Positions 6,544 to 30,415 of a DNA stretch of 32,000 nucleotides are shown here, piece by piece (position 1 is the stretch's first letter; every line of letters starts with the position of its first letter). The notes under the pieces were generated by a model, which was not told where the DNA came from, searched no databases, and worked only from the letters and a program-made list of their open reading frames with translations. The stretch spans positions 1 to 32,000 of the forward strand of contig FR903525.1 of the NCBI GenBank assembly GCA_000438075.1. The letters run 5' to 3'. The position numbers and the translations under genes were made by a program. This stretch comes from Clostridium sp. CAG:609 (lineage in GTDB: Bacteria > Bacillota_I > Bacilli_A > RF39 > UBA660).

Positions 6544-7758
6544 TTATCTGGATCTTCCTTGAAGTTCATTTGTATACAATTTATCTAAATCTTGTGGCGA
6601 AATATATATTACTTTGCCACCTTTAGGTCTTATTTTTTCAAAACCAAAAACTATCCATATAGCATCAATTGGAGTATCAGGCATTTGAGCATGTCCATCA
6701 GTAAATATTATTTTGTTTTCTACTCTTTTAGTAAATGAATTAACTGCGATATTAAAGTCAGTTCCTCCGCCACCTTCAAATTGCATGTTTTCTATATCTT
6801 GTTCTGTTCTTATTTCATTAAAACCATAAAATTTTGTATCAAAACAACCTACTTTTAATCTAGAAGTATGTAATATATTTTTGCATTCACGAAGGAAACC
6901 ACGAAGTAAGAAGTCACTGATTGAACCACTTGTATCAAGTAATATTTCTGTTTCTGGATGAGGTTGTTCTTCTAGGTTAGCAGATATAACACCATCTTCA
7001 ATTTCCGCATTTTTATAAGACCAATCAGCATTATAAGTTATTGCTTCTTTTAAGATGTATCGCCAATCAACTATTGGTTTTGATTTACCTATATCATTAA
7101 TAGTTCTAATAACACTATTTGATGTTTTACCCCTTTGTGATACTTCTTTTAATATTTCTCTTTTTAACTTTTCAAGTTTTCTTTTTTTCTCAGCAAGATT
7201 TTCTTTGAATGAATCTTTTTCACCCATTTTTTTAGTTTGTTCTTGTTTTTCTTTGATTTGTTTTTCTTGTTCAGTTAAAGACGTTTCTTCTTTAAATTTT
7301 TTTATAGCATCTTTCCACATGTTGTGTGAATCGTGTCCAGCTTGTTCTTTCTTTTGTTCTTGCTCTTTGTCTTTTATTAGTTTTTCATAAAGTTCTTCGG
7401 CATCATAGTTAATTGCATCTTTGATATCAACACAACCTTCGACCATTTCTAATCCATCACGTTTTAAAAATTGGTTGATAACTCCATCAGTTGCAATATT
7501 CCAGGTGTATTCATCTTTTCCTTCACTTCTTAATATGTGATTGAATGCTACGTGACAAACTTCATGTGCAAAAACGAATGTCTGTTCAGAGACATTAAGG
7601 GAATTTAAAAAGTTTGGATTATAATAGATTGTCTTTCCATCAGTTTCTGCTGTTTTTATTGTAGTATCTTCTTTATATGAAACATTAGCTACTACACTTC
7701 CAAAGAATGGATATTTAACGAACATTTTTCTTTTTAATCTTTCAATATCGTATTTCAT
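6544..7758 (-). CDS. zincin-like metallopeptidase (HExxH) fused to a VWA domain (DUF2201_N + DUF2201-like; COG3864-like)
   Basis: 404 aa. N-terminus YPFFGSVV...FVFAHEVCHVAFNH...ATDGVIN (HExxH). K/E-rich linker. C-terminal VWA with MIDAS-like ILLDTSGSIS, GGGGTDF and IIFTDGHA. AAGGATAAATTATG RBS. Confidence 0.8.
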   Translation of the reverse strand: MKYDIERLKRKMFVKYPFFGSVVANVSYKEDTTIKTAETDGKTIYYNPNFLNSLNVSEQTFVFAHEVCHVAFNHILRSEGKDEYTWNIATDGVINQFLKRDGLEMVEGCVDIKDAINYDAEELYEKLIKDKEQEQKKEQAGHDSHNMWKDAIKKFKEETSLTEQEKQIKEKQEQTKKMGEKDSFKENLAEKKRKLEKLKREILKEVSQRGKTSNSVIRTINDIGKSKPIVDWRYILKEAITYNADWSYKNAEIEDGVISANLEEQPHPETEILLDTSGSISDFLLRGFLRECKNILHTSRLKVGCFDTKFYGFNEIRTEQDIENMQFEGGGGTDFNIAVNSFTKRVENKIIFTDGHAQMPDTPIDAIWIVFGFEKIRPKGGKVIYISPQDLDKLYTNELQGRSR

Positions 7759-8163: not shown

Positions 8164-10010
8164 AGACTTTTATCTCCCACTTCTGCTTCGGCAAGTTTTG
8201 CTTCAGCTATTATTTCTAATCTTTTTTCATCACCATGAGTCCATAATGTTTCAAAAATTGCTTTAAATTCGTTTCCTAACATTCCTGCAAAATCCCTTAC
8301 ATTCTCTAAGTTTTGTTCATCTACACGAGATAATCCCATTGTTGTTGCGTATCTTTCAGCAGTGTTTAGGGAAGCTATTTCTAATTCATCATAGTTTTTA
8401 TTTAATACATCATCTAGAGTTATTACTCTTTGATTACAGAATCTTACAAATTCATTTGTTATATCTTCACCAACTAGAGCTCTTAGCATCTTTGGATTTT
8501 GAGTTTTATAAAGCATTTTTGAAGCCATTTCCCATTTTCTAGGATCCGCATTGGGGTATTCACCATTATATTCACTTCTTAATGTTTGACCATTTTTATA
8601 TGCAATGTATGCATAGATTGCTGGATGAATGTTGTGTTCACTTGCCCACTTTAACCAACTTTCAGTTGTTGTTTTAATATATACATGTGCAAATCTATTA
8701 AATAGAGGTTCCGCTAATTGGTTAGCTGCTAAAGAATCTTTCATGTCATTTCCTGCAGCAACAATTCTAGCATTATCAGGCAATTTCCATATCCCATTTA
8801 CTTCTCTATCTAAAACTATATTAAATGCTATACCTTGAATACTTGGTAAGGCATTTGTTATTTCATCTAAGAATAATACATGAAGCCTTTCTGGTTCTTG
8901 TTCACATTTAGCTTCAAGTTTTTTAAGCCATGATGGTTTAACATCAATCATTTCTCCAGTACTTGCATTATAAACGCTTTTACCATTTAAGCTTTCAGGA
9001 GATGCATTACGTAAGTATATTATTTCACATGTTGGATCTATTTGTTTTACTCTGGCAGATTTACCTTCGGATGAAGGGCCATGTAAAAATACCGCTACAC
9101 CACTTTCAATAGCTCCTTTTATTATATCTTCTTCACTAACATTATCAAATGATAATCCATATGAATTTCTTTTTACTTTTACATTTGTTGATTCTCTTTC
9201 TTTATTCATATCATCTGCTTTAATGAATACCATATTTTGTGTTAAATCATGTAACATATATTTATCAAGATATTCTTTCATTTCAGATGTACTATATTTT
9301 AAGTCTGGCGCACCATTTCCAGCATATCTTATACCTGAAGCTAACCCACGTGTTGATATTAACAATCCATTTTTATTATCAACTAGCCATTTAACTGGAG
9401 TAACTTCAACCCAGACATGGTTATCATTTAAATACTTAATACCATTTGAAAGTTCAAAACAATCTTTATAAGCTTGAGCTTTAATACGAATATATTTTTT
9501 TCCACCAAACTCATATTCATCATAAGTTACTGGCATAAATTTATAATAATAATCAGGATTTTTGTTACCATCGAATGTATAAGTATTTCCAGTTTTTTTA
9601 AGTCCTTTGTAAAATTCTGTTTCTAGTATTTGTTGCATACTTGATGGTGCCGCATATTGAGGATATTCACCAAATTCAACGATATCTACTCCAGTTATTG
9701 TAGTATCTCTTTTTAAAGTTCCATTTGTTAAAAGTTCAGTAGATGATAGAACTGGACGTATCGTACCTCTACGAAGAAAACTTGAAGTAGGAACCATTTC
9801 ACCTTTGTTATTTATGCAACCTATTTTTTCATTTCCGCTGATATTTTGAGTCCAATACCAACCACGTGCTAATGCACCAAAATATATATATGCACCTGTT
9901 AAAATAGATAAATCTGTGTTTGATATATCATATCCGTAACTGTCAAATATATATTTTTCATCTCTAAATATTTGTTCAATAGATAACAAATTTATTTCTA
10001 AATCATTCAT
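8160..10010 (-). CDS. unknown ~265-aa N-terminal domain fused to a MoxR/AAA_5-type AAA+ ATPase
   Basis: Walker A LHGPSSEGKS (track residues 313-322), Walker B VLFLDE (382-387), sensor-1-like IVAAGN, and LFNRF. N-terminal region is W/Y-rich (ARGWYWTQN ... RRGTIRPVL ... VTPVKWLVDNKNGLLIS). Start is probably ATG 10010, since GTG 10022 lies inside the GGAGTGA RBS. Confidence 0.8.
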   Translation of the reverse strand: MNDLEINLLSIEQIFRDEKYIFDSYGYDISNTDLSILTGAYIYFGALARGWYWTQNISGNEKIGCINNKGEMVPTSSFLRRGTIRPVLSSTELLTNGTLKRDTTITGVDIVEFGEYPQYAAPSSMQQILETEFYKGLKKTGNTYTFDGNKNPDYYYKFMPVTYDEYEFGGKKYIRIKAQAYKDCFELSNGIKYLNDNHVWVEVTPVKWLVDNKNGLLISTRGLASGIRYAGNGAPDLKYSTSEMKEYLDKYMLHDLTQNMVFIKADDMNKERESTNVKVKRNSYGLSFDNVSEEDIIKGAIESGVAVFLHGPSSEGKSARVKQIDPTCEIIYLRNASPESLNGKSVYNASTGEMIDVKPSWLKKLEAKCEQEPERLHVLFLDEITNALPSIQGIAFNIVLDREVNGIWKLPDNARIVAAGNDMKDSLAANQLAEPLFNRFAHVYIKTTTESWLKWASEHNIHPAIYAYIAYKNGQTLRSEYNGEYPNADPRKWEMASKMLYKTQNPKMLRALVGEDITNEFVRFCNQRVITLDDVLNKNYDELEIASLNTAERYATTMGLSRVDEQNLENVRDFAGMLGNEFKAIFETLWTHGDEKRLEIIAEAKLAEAEVGDKSL

Positions 10011-10673: not shown

Positions 10674-11738
10674 TTATTCTAAAGACATTCCAGCTAATTT
10701 TAATTTTAAATCTTCATTTATAAGTGCTTCAATAATAGGTTCTAAGTCTCCATCCATAACTCTATCTAGTGACATAATTGAGAAATTGATTCTATGATCA
10801 GTTACTCTATTTTGTGGATAGTTATATGTTCTTATCTTTTCAGAACGATCTCCGGAACCTATTTTTGATTTTCTTGTTGCTCCGATAGCACTTTCTTGTT
10901 CATGCATTAATTCATCATTTATTTTGATTTTAAGAAGTTGCATTGCTCTTTCTTTATTACGAAGTTGACTTCTTTCTGTTTGACAAGTTACCACTACACC
11001 AGTTGGAATATGAGTTATACGAACTGCTGAATTGGCAGTATTAACTGATTGTCCACCTGCTCCACTTGAATGATATACGTCTATTTTTAAATCACTTTCT
11101 TTAATATCAATATTAACATTATCAACTTCAGGCATAACTAACACAGTAGATGTTGATGTATGAACTCTTCCTTGTGTTTCTGTGACAGGTACTCTTTGAA
11201 CTCTATGAGAACCACTTTCATATTTTAATTTACTATATACGTTAGCACCCTTTACCATGAATTCAATTTGTGAAAAACCTCCACTTGTACCTTCAATTTG
11301 GTGAATAACTTCAATCTTCCATCCATTAGCTTCTGCATAATAAGAATACATTCTAAATAAGTCTCCGGCGAAAATATTAGCTTCGTCTCCTCCGGCAGCT
11401 CCTCTTATTTCCATTATTACATTCTTACCATCATTTTCATCCTTTGGTACTAGTAATATTTCAAGTTCATGATATAATCTATCTATTTCTTTTGTTAAAT
11501 TTTCAACATCTTCCAAAGCAATTTCTTTTAAATCTGGGTCTTCCACCATCATTTTTGCTTCTTCTAAATTATTTTTTGCTTGTTTATAAGCTTGATATGT
11601 TTTAACAGTTTCTTCTAAATCACTATGTTCTTTAGATAATTCTTTAACTTGATTAAAATTACTTAATACTTCTGGATCACTTAATTTAGTAGTTAATTCA
11701 TTATATTTTTCTTCGATTGCATCTAATCTATTAAACAT
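10674..11738 (-). CDS. prfA: peptide chain release factor 1
   Basis: 354 aa. SGAGGQSVN (GGQ), RVQRVPVTETQGRVHTS (RF1-type PxT tripeptide region), and typical RF1 length. Confidence 0.95.
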   Translation of the reverse strand: MFNRLDAIEEKYNELTTKLSDPEVLSNFNQVKELSKEHSDLEETVKTYQAYKQAKNNLEEAKMMVEDPDLKEIALEDVENLTKEIDRLYHELEILLVPKDENDGKNVIMEIRGAAGGDEANIFAGDLFRMYSYYAEANGWKIEVIHQIEGTSGGFSQIEFMVKGANVYSKLKYESGSHRVQRVPVTETQGRVHTSTSTVLVMPEVDNVNIDIKESDLKIDVYHSSGAGGQSVNTANSAVRITHIPTGVVVTCQTERSQLRNKERAMQLLKIKINDELMHEQESAIGATRKSKIGSGDRSEKIRTYNYPQNRVTDHRINFSIMSLDRVMDGDLEPIIEALINEDLKLKLAGMSLE

Positions 11739-11778
11739 TTTATCCTCGCTTTCTTATTTAAAAATAAATATTTAATTG

Positions 11779-12225
11779 TTACATATTGCTTTCTTCTAAA
11801 TCATCAACTACCATAAGGTCTGCTAAATCATCTTCTGTATCATCAACAGTATCATCATCTTCATCGTAGAATAAATCGTCATCTTCTTCACGTTCAATGT
11901 CATTATTATTTTCTTCTTCATCCTCTTCCATTAAATCATCTTCGTCTTCTTCTTCATCTTCGAATACGATATCTAATTTATGTCTTGCTTGAAGATCCCA
12001 ATAACCTTTATCTAACATGATAAACTTTTTATTGATTGACATTAATTCAAAGAAATCCATTATTTCATTATCTACGGTTTCTTCTGGTAATTCAAGAACT
12101 TGACAAACTTTTGCGAATATATCACGCAATTTCATTTTCTTGCCATTTTCTTGTAATATTAATAAAGCAATATCGTCATACCCCATTAGTTCTAGTTCTT
12201 CCTTAGGTATATCTTTTAGCTTCAT
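11779..12225 (-). CDS. rpoE: DNA-directed RNA polymerase delta subunit
   Basis: 148 aa. N-terminal domain ELMGYDDIALLILQENGKKMKLRDIF...KKFIMLDKGYWDL, followed by a long D/E-rich acidic tail. Confidence 0.85.
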   Translation of the reverse strand: MKLKDIPKEELELMGYDDIALLILQENGKKMKLRDIFAKVCQVLELPEETVDNEIMDFFELMSINKKFIMLDKGYWDLQARHKLDIVFEDEEEDEDDLMEEDEEENNNDIEREEDDDLFYDEDDDTVDDTEDDLADLMVVDDLEESNM

Positions 12226-12243
12226 AAAATCATTCTCCTTACA

Positions 12244-13851
12244 TTACATTTGTTCTGGTGGTATTACCCCGATTAAATTTAGTGCATTAAATAATGTTTG
12301 TTTTACACATTTAATTAAATTTAAATTTTCCAAAGTTTCTTCTTCATCTTCAGTTAGTACACGTTTTTTAGCATAGTACATATGGAATAGACCTGCTAAT
12401 TCATATACATAATTAGTTATTAAATGTGGCAATTCTTTAGTTGCTGCAGTTTTAACAACTTCTGGAAATTCATAAACTTTTTCTAAAACATTATATGATG
12501 TATCGTCATTAATTGCAATATATTTTTCACATTTTTTGTCAAATTGTTGTGAATTTAGTATCGAACATATTCTTGCATATGCATAACTTACGTAAAATAC
12601 TGGGTTTTCATTTGACTTACTTTTAGCAAGACCAAGATCAAAATCCATTTGAGTATCTAAGCTATATCTTGAGAAATAATATCTTGCAGCATTAACCCCT
12701 ACTTCATCAATTAATTCTTTTAAAGTAACTGATTTACCAGTTCTTTTACTCATTTTAACAACTTCACCATTTTCTACTAATCTAACAAGTTGTAATAGTT
12801 TAATTTCTAGTTTTTCTGGGTCATTTCCAAGTGCTTTAACACTACTTTTTAAACGAGCAACATAACCATGGTGATCTGCTCCGAATATATCAATCATTTT
12901 ATCAAAACCACGATTATATTTATCCATATGATATGCTATGTCTGGTAAGAAGTATGTTGCATTACCATCTTCTTTAATTAAAACATGGTCTTTTTCATCA
13001 AATAAAGCACTACATTTAAACCAAGTTGCTCCATCTGCTTCATAAGTATATCCATTTTTTCTTAAGATATCCACAACATCCATTAAATTATATTTTTCTG
13101 ATAAAGCTTTTTCACTTGATTTAACATCAAATTCTATTCTATATTCTTTTAAGTCATCAAATATATGACCAACCATTTCTTCAGTACCTAACTTTTTAAA
13201 GTAATCAAGTTCTTTATCTAAGTATGTATCTTTATGTTCATCATATAGTTTTTGAGCAATGGCAATTATTTCTTTTCCATAGTATCCATTTTCAGGCATT
13301 TCAAATGGAAGACCACATATTTCTTTATAACGAGCTATAATTGATAAACCTAAGTTAGTAATTTGACTACCTAAGTCATTAATGTAATATTCTGTTGTTA
13401 CATCAAAACCACAGAAACGCATTATTCTAGCAAGAGAATCTCCATATGCACCACCACGAGCATTACCTAAATGAAGTATACCAGTGGGATTTGCACTAAC
13501 AAATTCAATATTTATTTTTTTACCATTACCAATATTACTTCTTCCATAATTTTCTTTTTCTTCTAAAACTTTGTTAATATTTTCAAGTAAGTATTCTTTT
13601 GATACAAAGAAGTTAATAAAACCTGGGGCTTTAATCTCAATACTCTTGATATTTTCATTATCAATATTTTTAGCAATCATATCTGCTATTTCCATCGGAT
13701 TTTTTCTTAAACTCTTAGCAAGTTTCATAGCTATATTACTTGAAAAATCTCCATTTTCAGCTTGAGCTGGTTTACTTATTTCAACATCAACTCCACTTAT
13801 TTCTAATTTTTCTAATGCTTTTTTAATTTCATCAATTAATAAATTTTTCAT
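12244..13851 (-). CDS. argS: arginine--tRNA ligase
   Basis: 535 aa. SANPTGILHLGNARGG (HIGH-type) and KMSKRTG (KMSKS-type). ATGA overlap with the upstream DUF1934-like gene. Confidence 0.95.
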   Translation of the reverse strand: MKNLLIDEIKKALEKLEISGVDVEISKPAQAENGDFSSNIAMKLAKSLRKNPMEIADMIAKNIDNENIKSIEIKAPGFINFFVSKEYLLENINKVLEEKENYGRSNIGNGKKINIEFVSANPTGILHLGNARGGAYGDSLARIMRFCGFDVTTEYYINDLGSQITNLGLSIIARYKEICGLPFEMPENGYYGKEIIAIAQKLYDEHKDTYLDKELDYFKKLGTEEMVGHIFDDLKEYRIEFDVKSSEKALSEKYNLMDVVDILRKNGYTYEADGATWFKCSALFDEKDHVLIKEDGNATYFLPDIAYHMDKYNRGFDKMIDIFGADHHGYVARLKSSVKALGNDPEKLEIKLLQLVRLVENGEVVKMSKRTGKSVTLKELIDEVGVNAARYYFSRYSLDTQMDFDLGLAKSKSNENPVFYVSYAYARICSILNSQQFDKKCEKYIAINDDTSYNVLEKVYEFPEVVKTAATKELPHLITNYVYELAGLFHMYYAKKRVLTEDEEETLENLNLIKCVKQTLFNALNLIGVIPPEQM

Positions 13852-24504: not shown

Positions 24505-24519
24505 AATACGTAGTTTAGG

Positions 24520-24546
24520 AAAAAAACCACATTAAAGTGGTTTTTA
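24520..24546 (-). terminator. hairpin/attenuator between rpmH and rnpA
   Basis: aaaaaccac-attaaa-gtggttttt overlaps the rpmH stop codon, with a U-run on the minus strand. Confidence 0.5.
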
Positions 24547-24666
24547 TTTACATAAAACTTTGCGTCCTTTTCTACGACGATTATTTAGAATATCAGTGTT
24601 TTTACGAGCAAAAAATCCATGTTTTTTAGCTGCTTTTCTTTTATTTGGTTGATATGTTCTTTTCAT
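24544..24666 (-). CDS. rpmH: 50S ribosomal protein L34 (40 aa; absent from the supplied ORF track)
   Basis: Hand translation of the minus strand gives [60 protein letters not shown]. Confidence 0.9.
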
Positions 24667-24700
24667 AATATAATTTCTCCTTTTCTTTAATAGCGTTATT

Positions 24701-24730
24701 ATTATAATATTAAAATGAGTAATAAGTCAA
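24701..24730 (-). promoter_or_regulatory. sigma-A-like promoter of rpmH
   Basis: Minus strand: TTGACT (24730..24725), an 18-nt spacer, then TATAAT (24706..24701). Confidence 0.5.
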
Positions 24731-24930
24731 GAAAAATCGGTATAAATCAGAACAATTGTGTAAATAATTTTGTTTTTACCGATGTTTTCTAAGTTATATT
24801 TATAATTTTTTTGCTTTTAAGTATGATGTATATAATGATTTTTCATACATTTTCTCCTTATCATTATATTTTTATTATACATTATATTAGTTTTATCTGC
24901 AATTTTAATGTGTAAAATTTGCAGTTTAAC

Positions 24931-25542
24931 TTAATTTATCGTTTCAGTTATAATGATATTAGGTCTTTTGTAAATACGCATACGTTGTTTATTTGTTCTT
25001 TTTAAAGTTACCTCTTCTAAATCTTCTTCAGAAATATGATAATCTTGATATAATCTATTTACTAATTCTGAAGTTATAATTGATTCTTTCTCTGTTTTTG
25101 AAAGATTAGATCTATTTGTATTTACTGGAATATCTTTTCTAAATAAATTAATAGCTATTTTATTTTCATCTGGGTAATTGTAGTTTAATTCTAGGAGTGG
25201 ATATTCAAAATATGTTTTAGAATTTAAATAAATTCCATTTATAAATAATGTTTCATAGTATGCTCTGGTATTTGATTTTTCTGTGTATTTTAAGCTTGGT
25301 AAAACATCTAGTGAACGAATTATATTCATGATACGATGATAAATATTATATAATGCAACATTATAATATAGTGATGTATCTGAAATTTTATCAATATCAC
25401 TTTTAGAAAGATATTCTTCCACTACTGAAAACTCAAGTTCAATTAATGAATTTAAGTAATCATATATTTCCTTAGATAAAGTATTTTTGTGGGTCTCTAG
25501 TAGACATTTTAAACTTGCTTTTGTATTAAATAATGAATTCAT
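24931..25542 (-). CDS. hypothetical protein (203 aa)
   Basis: Long ORF with a GGAGGGAG RBS (ccctcc at 25551-25556 on the plus strand). No recognisable motif. Confidence 0.55.
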   Translation of the reverse strand: MNSLFNTKASLKCLLETHKNTLSKEIYDYLNSLIELEFSVVEEYLSKSDIDKISDTSLYYNVALYNIYHRIMNIIRSLDVLPSLKYTEKSNTRAYYETLFINGIYLNSKTYFEYPLLELNYNYPDENKIAINLFRKDIPVNTNRSNLSKTEKESIITSELVNRLYQDYHISEEDLEEVTLKRTNKQRMRIYKRPNIIITETIN

Positions 25543-25684
25543 AACAAAACTCCCTCCGATTTAAGTATATTTTACCATGTTTTTGTGAGAAATTAAACTT
25601 ATTTTACGTAAAATATATTTTAAAAAGATATTTTTTGTTGCCTATAAATATTTTATGTGCTATGTTGGTATTGGAGGGATAGTT

Positions 25685-27013
25685 ATGGATAACAAAAATA
25701 TAAATCCGTTTGATGATGTATCGGATGACCGTAATTGGAGACATAAAAGTGATAAACTAAAAAAGTATATTGAAGCTGGTGCTAATGTTTATGAAGGAGA
25801 TTTAATTTATGAAAATTTAACAACCGCGGAAGGTATTGTTTTTCCTGAAGTAGTTAATGGTAACGTGTATTTAAGTAATTTAAAAAGTGCAAAGGGATTA
25901 GTTCTTCCTAAATACATTAATGGATTCTTAGATTTAGAATTTTTACATGATGCAGAAGGATTACAACTTTGTGATGTTGAAGATGCAGTAATTTTAAATG
26001 GATTACATTCTGCTAAGGGACTAAAAATACCATATGATTTTGATTTAGATAAGATTCAATGTGAAGATGAAAGTGTATTATATGAAATTAAGCAAAACCC
26101 AACTAAGTATTTTGTGGACTTACCAGAAAAAAAGGATATAAATGAAAAATTTTATGAAAGAAGAAATACAAGTTTAAAAGAAATATATTGTCAAAGGATG
26201 ATTGAACTAATTACCAGAAAATTAGATCTTGGAGTTGCACTTGATGAAGACGAAATAAAGTTTTTAAATAATGCCAAAGATAAAGCTATATTTTTTGATG
26301 TTGATAGCAGATATATGGTTGATCAAATTGAAGATTTGAAAAAAAGAGTTCAAGAAGAAAATGGTAAAAGTATACAAAAAAGTGAAAATGTTGAATATAA
26401 TGGAGATTTAAACTTTAATAAAGTAACTTATGCTTCGAGATTAAATCTTCCAAAAAAACTAAATGGTGATTTAAATTTAGATGGTGTAACTAGTGCAGTT
26501 GGTTTAGTTCTACCTGAAGTTATTAATGGAAATCTTAGTTTAAATGGTTTAACTAGTGCAGTTGGTTTAGTTCTACCTGAAGTTATTAATGGTGATTTAA
26601 ATTTAAATGGAATAATAAGTCCGGAAGGATTAGTTTTACCTAAGATATGTAAATCTATTGAATTAAATAGTTTAACTTCTGCGGAAGGATTGGTTTTTCC
26701 TGATACAATAGTTGGTTTATTAAGTTTAAATAGTTTAACAAAACCTGATGGACTTGTACTTCCAAAAGATGAAGTGGGTGAACTATGGTTGCCCAAATTA
26801 GTTAGTGCTGATGGATTAATCATTCCAAAGAAAATTATTGAAGCCGTTAACTTAGATAGTTTACAATCTGCGGAAGGATTGAAATTTCATCCAGGTTTTG
26901 ATCTTGATTATATAGATTGTAATGATGAAATTAAAGAAGAAATAATGAATAATCCAGAAAAATATTATGTAATCGAAGAAGAATTAGAAGAAAATACTGA
27001 AAGAGGTAGATAA
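25685..27013 (+). CDS. cytoplasmic 21-residue-repeat (LRR-like) protein with duplicated architecture
   Basis: Start ATG 25685 follows GGAGGGA. Contains 4 + ~8 repeats of consensus LxxLtSAEGLvlPexInGdLn. Each block ends with a similar cap (GLKIPYDFDLDKIQCEDE...NPTKYF and GLKFHPGFDLDYIDCNDE...NPEKYY). No signal peptide or transmembrane helix. Confidence 0.75.
   Translation: MDNKNINPFDDVSDDRNWRHKSDKLKKYIEAGANVYEGDLIYENLTTAEGIVFPEVVNGNVYLSNLKSAKGLVLPKYINGFLDLEFLHDAEGLQLCDVEDAVILNGLHSAKGLKIPYDFDLDKIQCEDESVLYEIKQNPTKYFVDLPEKKDINEKFYERRNTSLKEIYCQRMIELITRKLDLGVALDEDEIKFLNNAKDKAIFFDVDSRYMVDQIEDLKKRVQEENGKSIQKSENVEYNGDLNFNKVTYASRLNLPKKLNGDLNLDGVTSAVGLVLPEVINGNLSLNGLTSAVGLVLPEVINGDLNLNGIISPEGLVLPKICKSIELNSLTSAEGLVFPDTIVGLLSLNSLTKPDGLVLPKDEVGELWLPKLVSADGLIIPKKIIEAVNLDSLQSAEGLKFHPGFDLDYIDCNDEIKEEIMNNPEKYYVIEEELEENTERGR
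26488..26592 (+). repeat. 63-bp-period tandem duplication inside the repeat-protein gene
   Basis: The 42-nt string aactagtgcagttggtttagttctacctgaagttattaatgg occurs exactly at 26488..26529 and again at 26551..26592. Confidence 0.9.
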
Positions 27014-27014
27014 A

Positions 27015-27037
27015 AAAGAATCCGTTGAGGATTCTTT
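27015..27037 (+). terminator. terminator hairpin after the repeat-protein gene (left copy of a duplicated hairpin)
   Basis: aaagaatcc-gttga-ggattcttt, starting right after the TAA stop at 27011..27013. Confidence 0.65.
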
Positions 27038-27230
27038 CAGGCTGTTGACAAAGTCGTTTTTTCAAATCGGCTTTGTTACAGCCTTTTATATTTCTCCCAC
27101 TAAGATATAAAAAAAGAGCATTTTTTAGGGATTAAGTACCTAATATTTGCTCTTTTTTAAACAATTTAACTCACTTTGCTTTTTTTTAAAACTAATTTTT
27201 TTCAAAAAAGATAGTTTGTCAACAATCTGA
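27037..27230 (+). mobile_element. MITE-like ~194-bp element, copy 1
   Basis: About 95% identical to 29142..29332. Imperfect terminal inverted repeats: tcaggctgttgacaaa versus the reverse complement of tttgtcaacaatctga (14/16 matching). Internal long stem-loop aggctgttgacaaagtcg...cggctttgttacagcct, followed by ttttat. Confidence 0.7.
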
Positions 27231-27477
27231 GACTTTATTCATTAAGTCAGTTTGGCTTTTACTTTTTATGTAGTAAAATATCAATCTACTATTTAAGAGT
27301 AGAAAATTATGATAATTTTAAAAAAAGAAATGAAGAAATGTTTTTATAAACGTTGAATCATTCTAAAGTGCACAAATAAGTGCAATTAAGTAATAAAAGT
27401 GTGTTTTCAATGATGTGAACCCCGTTTCTTGGACAAAAGAGAAGCGAGGTTTTTATATGTCAAAATTATATTAAAAT

Positions 27478-28314
27478 TTAATAAGAACCTAAATTACTAT
27501 CATTTCCTAAATATTTATATTGTTCATTGATAAAACTTTTATATTGATCAAATACTTCTCTATTAGTATTTGAGAATTTATAAACATAATTAGAAATATC
27601 CAAAAAGAAATTTATTTCATCAATTGTTTGTAAGTTTGCTATACATTCAAAATGAAAACGTAAAACACCAAATAATAACTTTCTATCATCTATTGTGCTA
27701 TTTTTACAAATTTTTTGTAACATTTCAAAATAATTTTTAAACAAATATAAAGCAGATTCATTTTCTTTAAAATAGTCTTTTCCCATACTAGCATTAAATT
27801 TAATATTGTTTAAAACGCTACTATAATCCAATTTAACATCACTATCAAAATCTTCAATAGTTATAGATTTAGCACCACTTAAAGGATAAGTAGAAAAAGT
27901 ATTTGGTAATGTAAATAAGCAATAATGCGTCTTATAAAATTTTTCCTTATAAGTTTCGTATTGTTTTTTGTAATCATCATCATCCATAAATTTTAAATTT
28001 AAGTTACAAAAGCTATCTTCAAATCTTATATACATATCACGAAGTAAATCCCTGTAGCTCAAATCATCTTCTACTATTTGTTTTACCTCATCATAACTAA
28101 CCTTTTTTCCATAATATATCATACTAACTAATTCAGATGGATAAATATCCAATATTTTTCCATCAAACATTCTTTTTTCACCATCTAAAAATGACATTCT
28201 TAACCAAGTATTTTTATAAAGTGGTAATTTTCTAATAGTTTCAAGTGAGAAATCTTCAACCTCATAAAAAGTTGGTTCATCAGTTCCTACGTCAAATTGT
28301 ACAAATTTTGCCAT
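27478..28314 (-). CDS. hypothetical protein (278 aa)
   Basis: Long uninterrupted ORF, divergent from 28517..29110. No motif recognised. Confidence 0.55.
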   Translation of the reverse strand: MAKFVQFDVGTDEPTFYEVEDFSLETIRKLPLYKNTWLRMSFLDGEKRMFDGKILDIYPSELVSMIYYGKKVSYDEVKQIVEDDLSYRDLLRDMYIRFEDSFCNLNLKFMDDDDYKKQYETYKEKFYKTHYCLFTLPNTFSTYPLSGAKSITIEDFDSDVKLDYSSVLNNIKFNASMGKDYFKENESALYLFKNYFEMLQKICKNSTIDDRKLLFGVLRFHFECIANLQTIDEINFFLDISNYVYKFSNTNREVFDQYKSFINEQYKYLGNDSNLGSY

Positions 28315-28470
28315 AATATCAACTCCATATAATATAATTATAACATTTTTTTTACAGAATTTATAGGAATATTACATAACTTTACAATGTTTGTACTCAT
28401 CACACACAAATAAAAACATAATTAAAATTAGATTAAATTTTTTATAATAAACACATGAAACATACTAAAC

Positions 28471-28499
28471 TTGTAAAAAAAATAAAAATATGATATAAT
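28471..28499 (+). promoter_or_regulatory. sigma-A promoter with extended -10
   Basis: TTGTAA (28471..28476), a 17-nt spacer, then TGaTATAAT (TG at 28491-28492; TATAAT at 28494..28499). The GAGGTGA RBS and ATG 28517 follow. Confidence 0.6.
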
Positions 28500-28516
28500 T
28501 TAATCGAGGTGAAATC

Positions 28517-29110
28517 ATGGATAAAATTAGAAATTTACCAAATTATAATACTTATTCAATAGAATTAATGAATGCCGTTGTTAAAGAGGATCAAAATACA
28601 ATTAATCAAATTTTTAATAAGATAGATGAAGAATTAAGAAAAATTAGAAAAGAAAAAAGTATAACTTTTGAAAGAAGTCAAAAAATGTGGAATGACCCAG
28701 AATCACATCTTAGGGCAGTACAATTAGAAGAAGTAACAGATTTAAAAATGGAATTTGATGATAATTTAGGGTTATTTCAATTAGCAAATTTAATTCAATA
28801 TGAACCTGTTATGACAATAACATTCACAAAAATGCTTAAAAATCTCAGTGATATAAGACTAAGAACAAATATAAGAACTGCACGAAGTGAAAAAATGTGG
28901 AATAACCCAGAATCACATTTCAAAGCAGTAGAAGCGGAAAAACAAGCAGATTTAGAAAATGAAATTACTGATTTAATGAGTTTATACAATATTGCACAAT
29001 CTGCAAATTATACTAAAGGTATTGAATTAATAACTAATAGATTAAATAAGATAGCACCAAATTTAGCTGATAGTTTAATTCCTAAAAATAGTGGTACAGT
29101 ACATAAATAA
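28517..29110 (+). CDS. hypothetical protein with an internal duplicated module (KMWNxPESHxxAV)
   Basis: 197 aa. ERSQKMWNDPESHLRAVQLEEVTDLKMEF and ARSEKMWNNPESHFKAVEAEKQADLENEI are two copies of one module. Confidence 0.6.
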   Translation: MDKIRNLPNYNTYSIELMNAVVKEDQNTINQIFNKIDEELRKIRKEKSITFERSQKMWNDPESHLRAVQLEEVTDLKMEFDDNLGLFQLANLIQYEPVMTITFTKMLKNLSDIRLRTNIRTARSEKMWNNPESHFKAVEAEKQADLENEITDLMSLYNIAQSANYTKGIELITNRLNKIAPNLADSLIPKNSGTVHK

Positions 29111-29141
29111 TTTTAAAAGATGACTACAATTCGTAATCATC

Positions 29142-29332
29142 TCAGGCTGTTGACAAAGTCGATTTTTCAAATCGGCTTTTTCACAGCCTTTTATATTTCT
29201 CCCACTAAGATATAAAAAAAAACATTTTTTAGGGATTAAGCACCTAATATTTGCTCTTTTTTAAACAATTTAACCCACTTTGCTTTTTTTAAAACTAATT
29301 TTTTCAAAAAAGATAGTTTGTCAACAATCTGA
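29142..29332 (+). mobile_element. MITE-like ~191-bp element, copy 2 (same orientation as copy 1)
   Basis: Aligns end to end with 27037..27230, with about 7 substitutions and 3 indel positions. Same terminal inverted repeats. Confidence 0.7.
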
Positions 29333-29354
29333 AAGAATCCGTTGAGGGTTCTTT
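29332..29354 (-). terminator. terminator hairpin after the phosphoesterase gene (right copy of the duplicated hairpin)
   Basis: aaagaatcc-gttga-gggttcttt differs from 27015..27037 at one position. It abuts the stop codon at 29354..29356. Confidence 0.6.
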
Positions 29355-30175
29355 TAATTTGCATATATTTTAGGTAAGTTATATATAAAAGTAAATTTGT
29401 AGTAATTTGATTTCATGCTTTTATTTAAGTCATAGCTTTTAGTAAATTTTTTATTATAATCGATGCCTGTTTTTAATATATATAATATAATGTTAGACCA
29501 TTCTGGACATTCTTCATAGTATTTACTAGATTGGTAATAGTTTTTAACTTCATCAAAGATAAATGGTAATTCAATTTGTTCATAAATTGTTATATCTTCA
29601 TTTATTGATAAAATACCAAAAGTTGAAGTAGATGGTTTACCAAGAAATGTGTTAATGGCACCGGTGTTAATAAATAAATGATTTTTATATTCTTTATAAA
29701 AGTATTTATGTGTATGTGCAAATAAGAATATATCTGCATCATAATCATTAAGTAGCTTATTAAATGTTGATATTGATGTTTGATTTATTATATCTTTTGT
29801 ATTGTATGGACTTCCATGAGATAAAAGTATTTTTTTATTATTAATTGTTACCATTTTTGATGTTGGTAACTTTTTTAAATATTCTAAATTTTCTTCAGTC
29901 AAATTTTTTTTTGTATAATATAATGGGTAGTATTTTTCATTTTCACTGGACATACTTGGAGTTATATTTAATACTGATTCTTCGCGATTTCCAAGGATCA
30001 CTTCAGCATTTAGGCTCCGTAAAGTATCTATTATTTTATTATCATCTGGTCCATCAGTTAAAAAATCTCCGCATACTAAAAATTTAGATATATTCATATC
30101 TTTACAATAATCTAATACTTTTGTTAATAAGTAATAGTTTCCGTGGATATCATTTAATATTGCAACTTTTTCCAT
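29354..30175 (-). CDS. calcineurin-like metallophosphoesterase
   Basis: 273 aa. VAILNDIHGN (DxH), CGDFLTDGP (GD), LGNRE (GNH[ED]-like), LLSHGSP and LFAHTH (GHTH-like). Confidence 0.8.
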   Translation of the reverse strand: MEKVAILNDIHGNYYLLTKVLDYCKDMNISKFLVCGDFLTDGPDDNKIIDTLRSLNAEVILGNREESVLNITPSMSSENEKYYPLYYTKKNLTEENLEYLKKLPTSKMVTINNKKILLSHGSPYNTKDIINQTSISTFNKLLNDYDADIFLFAHTHKYFYKEYKNHLFINTGAINTFLGKPSTSTFGILSINEDITIYEQIELPFIFDEVKNYYQSSKYYEECPEWSNIILYILKTGIDYNKKFTKSYDLNKSMKSNYYKFTFIYNLPKIYAN

Positions 30176-30206: not shown

Positions 30207-30415
30207 TGTTGATAACTAGCCCTTTTTGTGGATTGTGGATAATTTGTTGATAACTTAAAAAAATTATCCACAGAATTAACAACATTTTATCAAAAGTGAC
30301 TTTGTGGATAAAATGTTAGTAAGTGATGTGTTTATAAAAAATTGTTAGTTTTGTTGATAACTCTTGTAAATAGGCATATTTCTGGGAATTTTTATGTGGA
30401 TAACTTTGTGGATAA
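30207..30415. promoter_or_regulatory. oriC part 1: DnaA-box cluster upstream of dnaA
   Basis: Perfect TGTGGATAA/TTATCCACA boxes at 30234..30242, 30264..30272, 30303..30311, 30395..30403 and 30407..30415. One-mismatch TGTTGATAA boxes at 30207..30215, 30245..30253 and 30352..30360. Confidence 0.9.

Follow-up and report, generated by a model that had tools for sequence, protein, structure and literature searches.

A two-gene cassette close to the replication origin of Clostridium sp. CAG:609 is bracketed by two MITEs (small transposable elements of the miniature inverted-repeat type) and, outside these, by two copies of one hairpin, here called H_A, and our analysis indicates that the duplication of H_A was very probably made by hairpin-targeted transposition of the IS1182 type. 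The window, that is, the whole stretch of DNA that was analyzed, comprises 32,000 nucleotides (nt) of contig FR903525.1 (GCA_000438075.1), and it was compared with about 200 fetched loci or contigs, labeled L001 to L198; the comparative evidence comes mostly from metagenome assemblies. As to how the present arrangement arose, we favor, at about an even chance, the insertion of a 2.3-kb MITE-cargo-MITE unit as a whole into H_A. The features of the locus are listed in Table 1.

Table 1. Features of the MITE-bracketed cassette and its flanks (positions are those of the window; aa, amino acids; ORF, open reading frame).
Feature	Position	Strand	Description
Left flanking gene	25685..27013	+	442-aa protein, 21-aa (63-nt) repeats, no Pfam family
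Left H_A	27016..27036	.	AAGAATCCGTTGAGGATTCTT; 9-bp stem counting flanking A/T
MITE copy 1	27037..27230	+	194 nt, non-coding IS1182-family derivative
ORF remnant	27231..27350	+	3' end of a 191-aa ORF; complete ORF present on a Tn4451-like mobilisable transposon
Orphan-gene segment	27351..28434	-	1.08 kb with 278-aa gene (27478-28314); not in L195
197-aa gene module	28435..29141	+	promoter-like site 28471-28499, gene 28517-29110, terminator H_C 29119-29141
MITE copy 2	29142..29332	+	191 nt, oriented like copy 1; adjoins H_C at its 3' foot
Right H_A	29333..29353	.	AAGAATCCGTTGAGGGTTCTT; one mismatch relative to the left copy (20/21)
Right flanking gene	29354..30175	-	273-aa calcineurin-like metallophosphoesterase, terminating at H_A

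A preliminary description of this DNA, made from its letters and open reading frames, had reported two direct repeats of about 95% identity with imperfect 16-bp terminal inverted repeats, a 5' stem-loop and a T-run, and all of these features were confirmed. The two copies are 95.4% identical across 194 aligned columns, and each ends in the inverted repeats TCAGGCTGTTGACAAA and TCAGATTGTTGACAAA, which match at 14 of 16 positions (27037-27052 and 27215-27230 in copy 1) and whose arms reach 26 nt at 77% complementarity. The long 5' stem-loop spans about 27039-27084 in copy 1 and is followed by the T-run, the center of the same copy holds a bidirectional terminator-like hairpin (about 27110-27157), and the fold of the MITE has a z-score of about -7. 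Neither copy (191-194 nt) contains an ORF of 50 aa or more, the outer ends of both bracketing copies are intact, and these are the only two copies within the window. A search of the whole window against Rfam returned nothing at gathering thresholds, and a search around the MITE pair at permissive E-values gave weak, chance-level matches only. We also observed that the loop of the 5' hairpin (27060-27066) occurs in both orientations, reading TTC or GAA, together with a stem-perfecting change, as seen at this position in the window, in copy 1 of L132, in L125 and in L179; the occurrence in two different species suggests recurrent template switching at the palindrome.

The affiliation of the repeats became clear from their relatives, in which the element is multi-copy. 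A degenerate pattern for both MITE ends, scanned against one genome per species, matched at least 120 stretches, many of which lie 55-130 nt from contig ends, as is typical of an assembly-breaking repeat. Full-length 190-nt MITEs with 74-94% identity to the window copies were found in Firmicutes bacterium M10-2 (at least 6 loci), in several metagenome-assembled genomes of uncultured Bacilli and in metagenomes. The same ends bound full-length insertion sequences (ISs) that encode proteins of about 490-510 aa, and on the IS1182 transposase model NCBIfam NF033551 (cut-off 270 bits) the protein of L048 and the 509-aa ORF of L162 scored 434 and 420 bits, respectively. The IS in L162 (252-1951, 1700 bp) is the kind of element with matching terminal inverted repeats that the preliminary description had proposed to look for: its terminal bases are identical to those of the MITE at 25 of 25 positions on the left and 16 of 16 on the right, a similar stem-loop with inverted repeat stands at its left end, and the IS is flanked by a 28-nt hairpin duplication. 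Judged by sequence, it is the best candidate for the autonomous partner of the MITE. Since their ends are identical to those of an IS encoding an IS1182 transposase, the window repeats are MITEs, non-autonomous deletion derivatives of an IS1182-family IS.

The same comparison showed how these elements choose their sites. Among the matches listed, 89 of 117 matched ends adjoin a hairpin whose stem has 6 bp or more, compared with 7.5% of random positions in the same loci, and the ends that adjoin no hairpin are mostly chance matches in GC-rich genomes. At 16 of the 33 distinct MITE flank pairs, a perfect or near-perfect direct duplication of one whole hairpin of 14-24 nt was found, and this hairpin differs per site, as in the single MITEs flanked by GAAACCTAAGAATTAAGTTTC (L031), GCTGTCACATGAATCGTGACAGCA (L112) and AAAAAGCACCTCAGTGCTTTTT (L070); the hairpin sequences at different MITE sites are mutually unrelated. 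At about nine other MITE loci, the hairpin on one side differs from that on the other, which may be an assembly artefact. At L108 (39-269), two MITE copies are parted only by the hairpin AAAATAATCATTATGATTATTTT, while the outer flank is a different hairpin, an arrangement that points to nested or recombined insertions. When viral contigs were scanned with the end pattern, four single matches were obtained, of which only that in L001 (2213-2244; IMGVR_UViG_3300045988_097115), a predicted viral contig, resembles a real element end; this related end adjoins a hairpin and hints that phages may carry members of this MITE/IS family.

The hairpin that the preliminary description had seen duplicated on the outer flanks was recovered as a 21-nt sequence; since an A-run and a T-run enclose the target hairpin, its boundaries with the element are uncertain by 1 nt on both sides. 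The two copies have the consensus AAGAATCCGTTGAGG[A/G]TTCTT, and the left copy has a DNA fold of -7.6 kcal/mol (z -3.9). H_A occurs twice in the window, where 0 occurrences are expected by chance, and among the roughly 200 fetched loci it was seen at this locus only, so that the concern that it might be a common genome-wide terminator motif was not borne out. In strains L125, L132 and L141, the left and right copies are identical to each other. Importantly, the duplication encloses the MITE pair and not the single copies, and the inner flanks of the MITEs are unrelated to H_A. Because single MITEs elsewhere are flanked by duplications of a whole hairpin that differs from site to site, the duplication of H_A is a target-site duplication from structure-directed transposition, and neither an attachment (att) core nor a common terminator motif. 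Of the two mechanisms offered in the preliminary description, hairpin-targeted transposition thus agrees with what is seen, the elements being MITEs of an IS1182 family that duplicates the whole target hairpin at each insertion.

The 1.9-kb cargo between the MITEs is a mosaic of foreign DNA. A homologue of the 197-aa protein, at 89% identity, is encoded on a small AT-rich element (L195-L198) together with a large serine recombinase, TnpV and a Mob_Pre relaxase, which is a Tn4451-like gene set. Two parts of the cargo align with this element at the DNA level, the ORF remnant (window 27230-27350 and L195 2602-2722, 100% identity) and the 197-aa gene module (window 28435-29140 and L195 2708-3402, 94% identity), and the intervening 278-aa segment is bounded by the microhomology TTTTTATAA. 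The remnant begins with a weak hairpin, GACTTTATTCATTAAGTC, that has a 5-bp stem and a z-score of -1.4. The terminator of the 197-aa gene, H_C (GATGACTACAATTCGTAATCATC), has a fold z-score of -4.4, and its counterpart in L195, GATGACTACAATTCGTAATCAT, is followed by a T-run without a MITE; MITE copy 2 is therefore located precisely at the 3' foot of H_C, a hairpin left free in the relative. H_A is not present on the Tn4451-like relative. The 197-aa module was also found without MITEs in several other places: at another chromosomal locus, next to an Abi_C protein, next to a YhcG-like nuclease and next to an IS3 element. In L157, some 4 kb separate a truncated MITE (7298-7456) from a Mob_Pre relaxase gene (11510-12892) with 72% DNA identity to that of the Tn4451-like element, another association of a MITE with a mobilisable element.

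When the cargo and flanking proteins were compared with Pfam, NCBIfam, PADLOC, PHROGs and PDB sequences, nothing except the metallophosphoesterase was above threshold. The 278-aa protein has only 11 homologue clusters, its confident AlphaFold2 model has a pLDDT (predicted local distance difference test score) of 88 and no significant structural neighbor in PDB or BFVD, and its homologues in other species (L143 and L144) do not adjoin MITEs. Just past the stop of this minus-strand gene, a terminator-like hairpin with a T-run is present on the plus strand (27423-27455), upstream of which there is no plus-strand gene save the ORF remnant. The 197-aa gene has an internal duplication (28643-28762 and 28853-28972, 73% identity) with the motif KMWN-PESH, and a search for its homologues returned many separate variants at 93-98% identity, with a truncated 127-aa form in L133.

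The exact phosphoesterase protein of the right flank occurs in many human-gut assemblies, and among strains of one and the same gut species three alleles were found at the locus. The cassette allele is the majority form (at least 14 of about 19 phosphoesterase contexts, and all of the contexts reached via the 278-aa and 442-aa proteins), and the arrangement is repeated in more than 20 independent assemblies. The single-MITE allele, seen in L125 alone (sample ERZ4560761; 1 of about 19 contexts), has one MITE between two identical copies of H_A and no cargo. In the third allele, found in L130 and L131, an unrelated 724-aa gene is present without a MITE, and the phosphoesterase terminator is a similar hairpin, AAAGAACCTACATGGTTCTTT. 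L125 and the cassette strain L132 (copy 1) have the same MITE sequence, down to the derived flip of the 5'-hairpin loop, and beyond the 442-aa gene L125 is nearest to L132 (4 differences in 1312 nt), while on the opposite flank the alleles are intermixed. This nesting of L125 among cassette strains suggests a deletion origin, and in the simplest reading the single-MITE allele was derived from the cassette allele via recombination between the direct MITEs. In L141, an apparent patch exchange between the two MITE copies was seen. Elsewhere, L179 shows the same layout as the cassette, with a hairpin, a truncated MITE, one gene, a MITE and the same hairpin in that order and only the outer ends intact, and at that site L146 and L158 have a single MITE.

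The copies of the 190-nt repeat share more than 100 identical bases, and assemblers may short-cut or mis-phase the MITE pair; since metagenome assemblies may mis-resolve such a repeat, confirmation from reads is needed for the single-MITE allele as well as for the mismatched flanks and the patch exchange. In L181, the order of H_C, MITE and 191-aa remnant was considered as a circle or tandem junction and was rejected on account of a jump in GC content from 0.25 to 0.5 exactly 55 nt past the MITE, at 1099-1100 of the contig. In L153, the MITE breaks off at 11040, near its own position 164, and GC rises further on, near 9000. Both contigs connect AT-rich DNA of the organism (25% GC) with DNA of roughly 50% GC and are probably mis-joins.

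Taken together, these observations can be accommodated by a series of steps in which the MITEs would be moved by a DDE transposase supplied in trans. Such a transposase would pick DNA hairpins, mostly intrinsic terminators, and would join the element ends at both feet of the hairpin, so that repair would duplicate the hairpin as a whole. The cargo may have been assembled on a Tn4451-like mobilisable transposon, where one MITE would have entered the terminator of the 197-aa gene and the other would have inserted inside the upstream 191-aa ORF. The outer ends of the two direct MITEs could then have been used together as a composite of 2.3 kb with 1.9 kb of cargo, whose target would have been the terminator hairpin common to the convergent 442-aa and phosphoesterase genes, and each flanking gene would have retained its own hairpin copy. 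Recombination between the direct MITEs could later remove the cargo and give the rare single-MITE allele. In this series, we infer the movement of the pair as one unit, the source of the transposase and the direction of the allele change. The one-step composite requires the fewest events and agrees with the known composites of the IS1182 family, with the derived look of the single-MITE allele and with the similar layout of L179; moreover, neither MITE has a duplication of its own, while the pair has one at 20 of 21 bases. We also considered that each inner flank might be one half of an older hairpin duplication, and dropped this view, as the flank opposite H_C, unlike H_C itself, is no convincing hairpin but the beginning of a truncated ORF with a weak 5-bp stem.

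Several results weigh against this account. A tblastn search with an IS1182-type transposase gave no match in the window, so the part of the preliminary description that denied a transposase in the window stands for this type; its denial of an integrase holds within the five ORFs around the MITE pair, to which the integrase scan was limited and in which no recombinase or transposase Pfam domain was found. The composite was not found at a second site: in each of the 23 contigs read, out of 159 index blocks, the exact 278-aa protein was at this locus. The reciprocal donor junction, in which the right end of the MITE is followed by H_C, gave 0 matches in the metagenome collection. An empty allele with a single hairpin between the flanking genes, of the kind that the preliminary description had suggested looking for, was likewise not found: three look-ups around the flanking genes returned no bare single H_A. 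The inner flank of MITE copy 1 is a weak hairpin within coding sequence, which is atypical for the family and could be a deletion endpoint. Finally, the single-MITE allele and the swaps in L141 come from metagenome assemblies, where mis-resolution of a repeat of about 190 nt is possible, and two contigs that touch the cassette, L181 and L153, are demonstrably chimeric.

The single insertion of about 2.3 kb put forward in the preliminary description is therefore plausible but unproven, as a lone MITE could have made the duplication and the cargo could have arrived later by recombination between MITEs. In such a two-step capture, a MITE would first have inserted into H_A, a RecA-dependent exchange with a circular Tn4451-like transposon bearing a MITE would then have put the whole transposon between direct MITEs, and a deletion from the right end of MITE copy 1 into the 191-aa ORF would have removed the relaxase, TnpV and serine recombinase genes. 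The existence of a single-MITE allele with identical H_A copies in L125 fits this course of events, as does the collinearity of the cargo with a Tn4451-like element that encodes all three of these proteins, and elements of the Tn4451-like kind excise as circles. The junction of MITE copy 1 with a truncated ORF at a weak hairpin looks like a deletion endpoint, and both the nine or so MITE loci with differing side hairpins and the patch exchange apparent in L141 would be expected if MITE copies recombine. However, the full transposon was at the locus in none of about 70 contigs read, the single-MITE allele is rare and nested by L132, suggesting a derived deletion, one more event is needed than by the composite route, and assembly artefacts may account for the mismatched flanks and patch exchanges. 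We consider the capture in two steps a credible alternative, somewhat improbable on the present evidence, and continue to favor the insertion of the composite as a unit.

A site-specific, Campbell-type integration, in which an integrase would insert a circular element through a hairpin att core, would account for the 21-nt direct duplication at both ends of the insert, and a relative of part of the cargo does reside on an element with a serine recombinase. Against this stand the lack of recombinase domains from the five ORFs surrounding the pair, the lack of an IS1182-type transposase in the window, the position of the duplication next to inverted repeats identical to the ends of an IS1182-family IS, and the absence of H_A from the Tn4451-like relative. 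The same MITE is flanked elsewhere by 16 different duplicated hairpins, so that the duplicated sequence is set by the target and not by the element; this mechanism, also offered in the preliminary description, is accordingly very improbable. A mere coincidence, by which MITEs inserted independently beside pre-existing copies of a common terminator or were so placed by an assembly artefact, draws some support from the abundance of terminator hairpins and the preference of the MITE family for them, but among the roughly 200 fetched loci H_A is confined to this one, in the 32-kb window it is found twice where none would be expected, independent insertions would each bear a duplication of their own, which neither copy does, and the recurrence in independent assemblies argues against an artefact. 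We regard such a coincidence as highly unlikely.

The proposed transposition has close parallels in staphylococci, where IS1272 and TnSha1/TnSha2, of the IS1182 family, recognize hairpin targets by structure, the target often being a confirmed terminator, and where insertion of IS1272 or TnSha1 deletes or replaces that hairpin and leaves no duplication (PMC4923244, PMC5678879). TnSha1 and TnSha2 are IS1182-family composites able to carry neighboring genes (PMC4923244, PMC5678879), and the duplication of a whole hairpin is drawn as a possible alternative pathway in PMC5678879. The transposase family, the choice of hairpin by structure and the capacity to form composites are thus the same as here, whereas the hairpin is lost with IS1272/TnSha and is duplicated whole (14-28 nt) by the present MITE family and the 1.7-kb IS; in addition, both ends of the composite are non-autonomous MITEs here and not full ISs as in TnSha. 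The present MITE family therefore corresponds to the alternative duplication pathway of PMC5678879. In Tn5405, as cited in PMC4438569, two copies of an IS1182-family element, IS1182 itself, bracket the cargo. As far as that citation describes it, Tn5405 consists of full IS copies and resistance genes, whereas 190-nt MITEs and cargo genes without an assigned function are found here.

Other systems resemble the locus in part. In integron mobilisation units, a pair of MITEs in the same orientation surrounds a gene cassette, with a target duplication outside and mobilisation in trans; the transposase family is another one, the duplications are short and of fixed length and hairpins are not targeted. 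IS1397 and ISKpn1 insert into extragenic palindromes (repetitive extragenic palindromes and bacterial interspersed mosaic elements, REP/BIME) as safe sites; they use a specific palindrome family and make short duplications, whereas any terminator-like hairpin serves here and the length of the duplication follows the hairpin. In the pseudo-compound transposons and translocatable units of IS26, direct repeats bracket cargo that is gained or lost as a circle with one copy of the element. That exchange is a conservative reaction of the IS26 transposase itself and IS26 makes 8-bp duplications, whereas an exchange between the present MITEs would need host recombination.

As an example of mobile DNA of a known kind, the locus is clear though fairly ordinary, and it adds to that kind a clean set of whole-hairpin duplications, a composite made of MITEs only and a cargo of traceable origin. 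The 16 MITE sites and one full-length IS form a natural set of whole-hairpin duplications by IS1182-family elements, and a comparison of these sites with IS1272/TnSha1 could reveal how DNA structure is recognized by a DDE transposase and on which side of the stem the joining takes place. It also appears that a piece of a mobilisable transposon can become fixed in a chromosome by means of MITEs of about 190 nt, with the neighboring terminators undamaged, and the MITE explains why contigs of gut metagenome assemblies frequently break or are mis-joined at this locus. That MITE pairs act as a general shuttle of cassettes from mobilisable transposons to chromosomal terminator hairpins is a tentative and rather doubtful extension. 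If it were true, the transposase would cleave at the feet of an extruded hairpin with a duplication length set by the target (14-28 nt observed), both neighbors would keep a terminator in what would amount to structure-guided, safe-harbor gene acquisition, and one transposase family would contain two mirror-image reactions, this one and the deletion of the hairpin by IS1272.

The window surrounds the replication origin, with rnpA and yidC on one side and dnaA and a cluster of DnaA boxes (30207-30415) on the other. Upstream of dnaA, this cluster comprises nine DnaA boxes, of which five are perfect and none has more than one mismatch, and the MITE-bounded insertion lies about 850 bp from it; given the position of the cluster, several strain-variable genes are therefore located between rpmH and the origin. 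A second strain-variable spot extends from a 203-aa gene to rpmH (window 24505-25655), as seen in L129, L133 and L135-L137. No MITE was found at this spot, where some strains have extra genes of 81, 174 and 148 aa, or an 81-aa gene together with a 324-aa HipA_C-like gene, and the window has none of these between the 203-aa gene and rpmH. The left flanking gene, which is convergent with the phosphoesterase gene and whose stop lies 2 nt before the left H_A, also varies among strains: its 21-aa repeats are at 26462-26615, and the encoded protein measures 421, 442 or 463 aa, in 21-aa steps.

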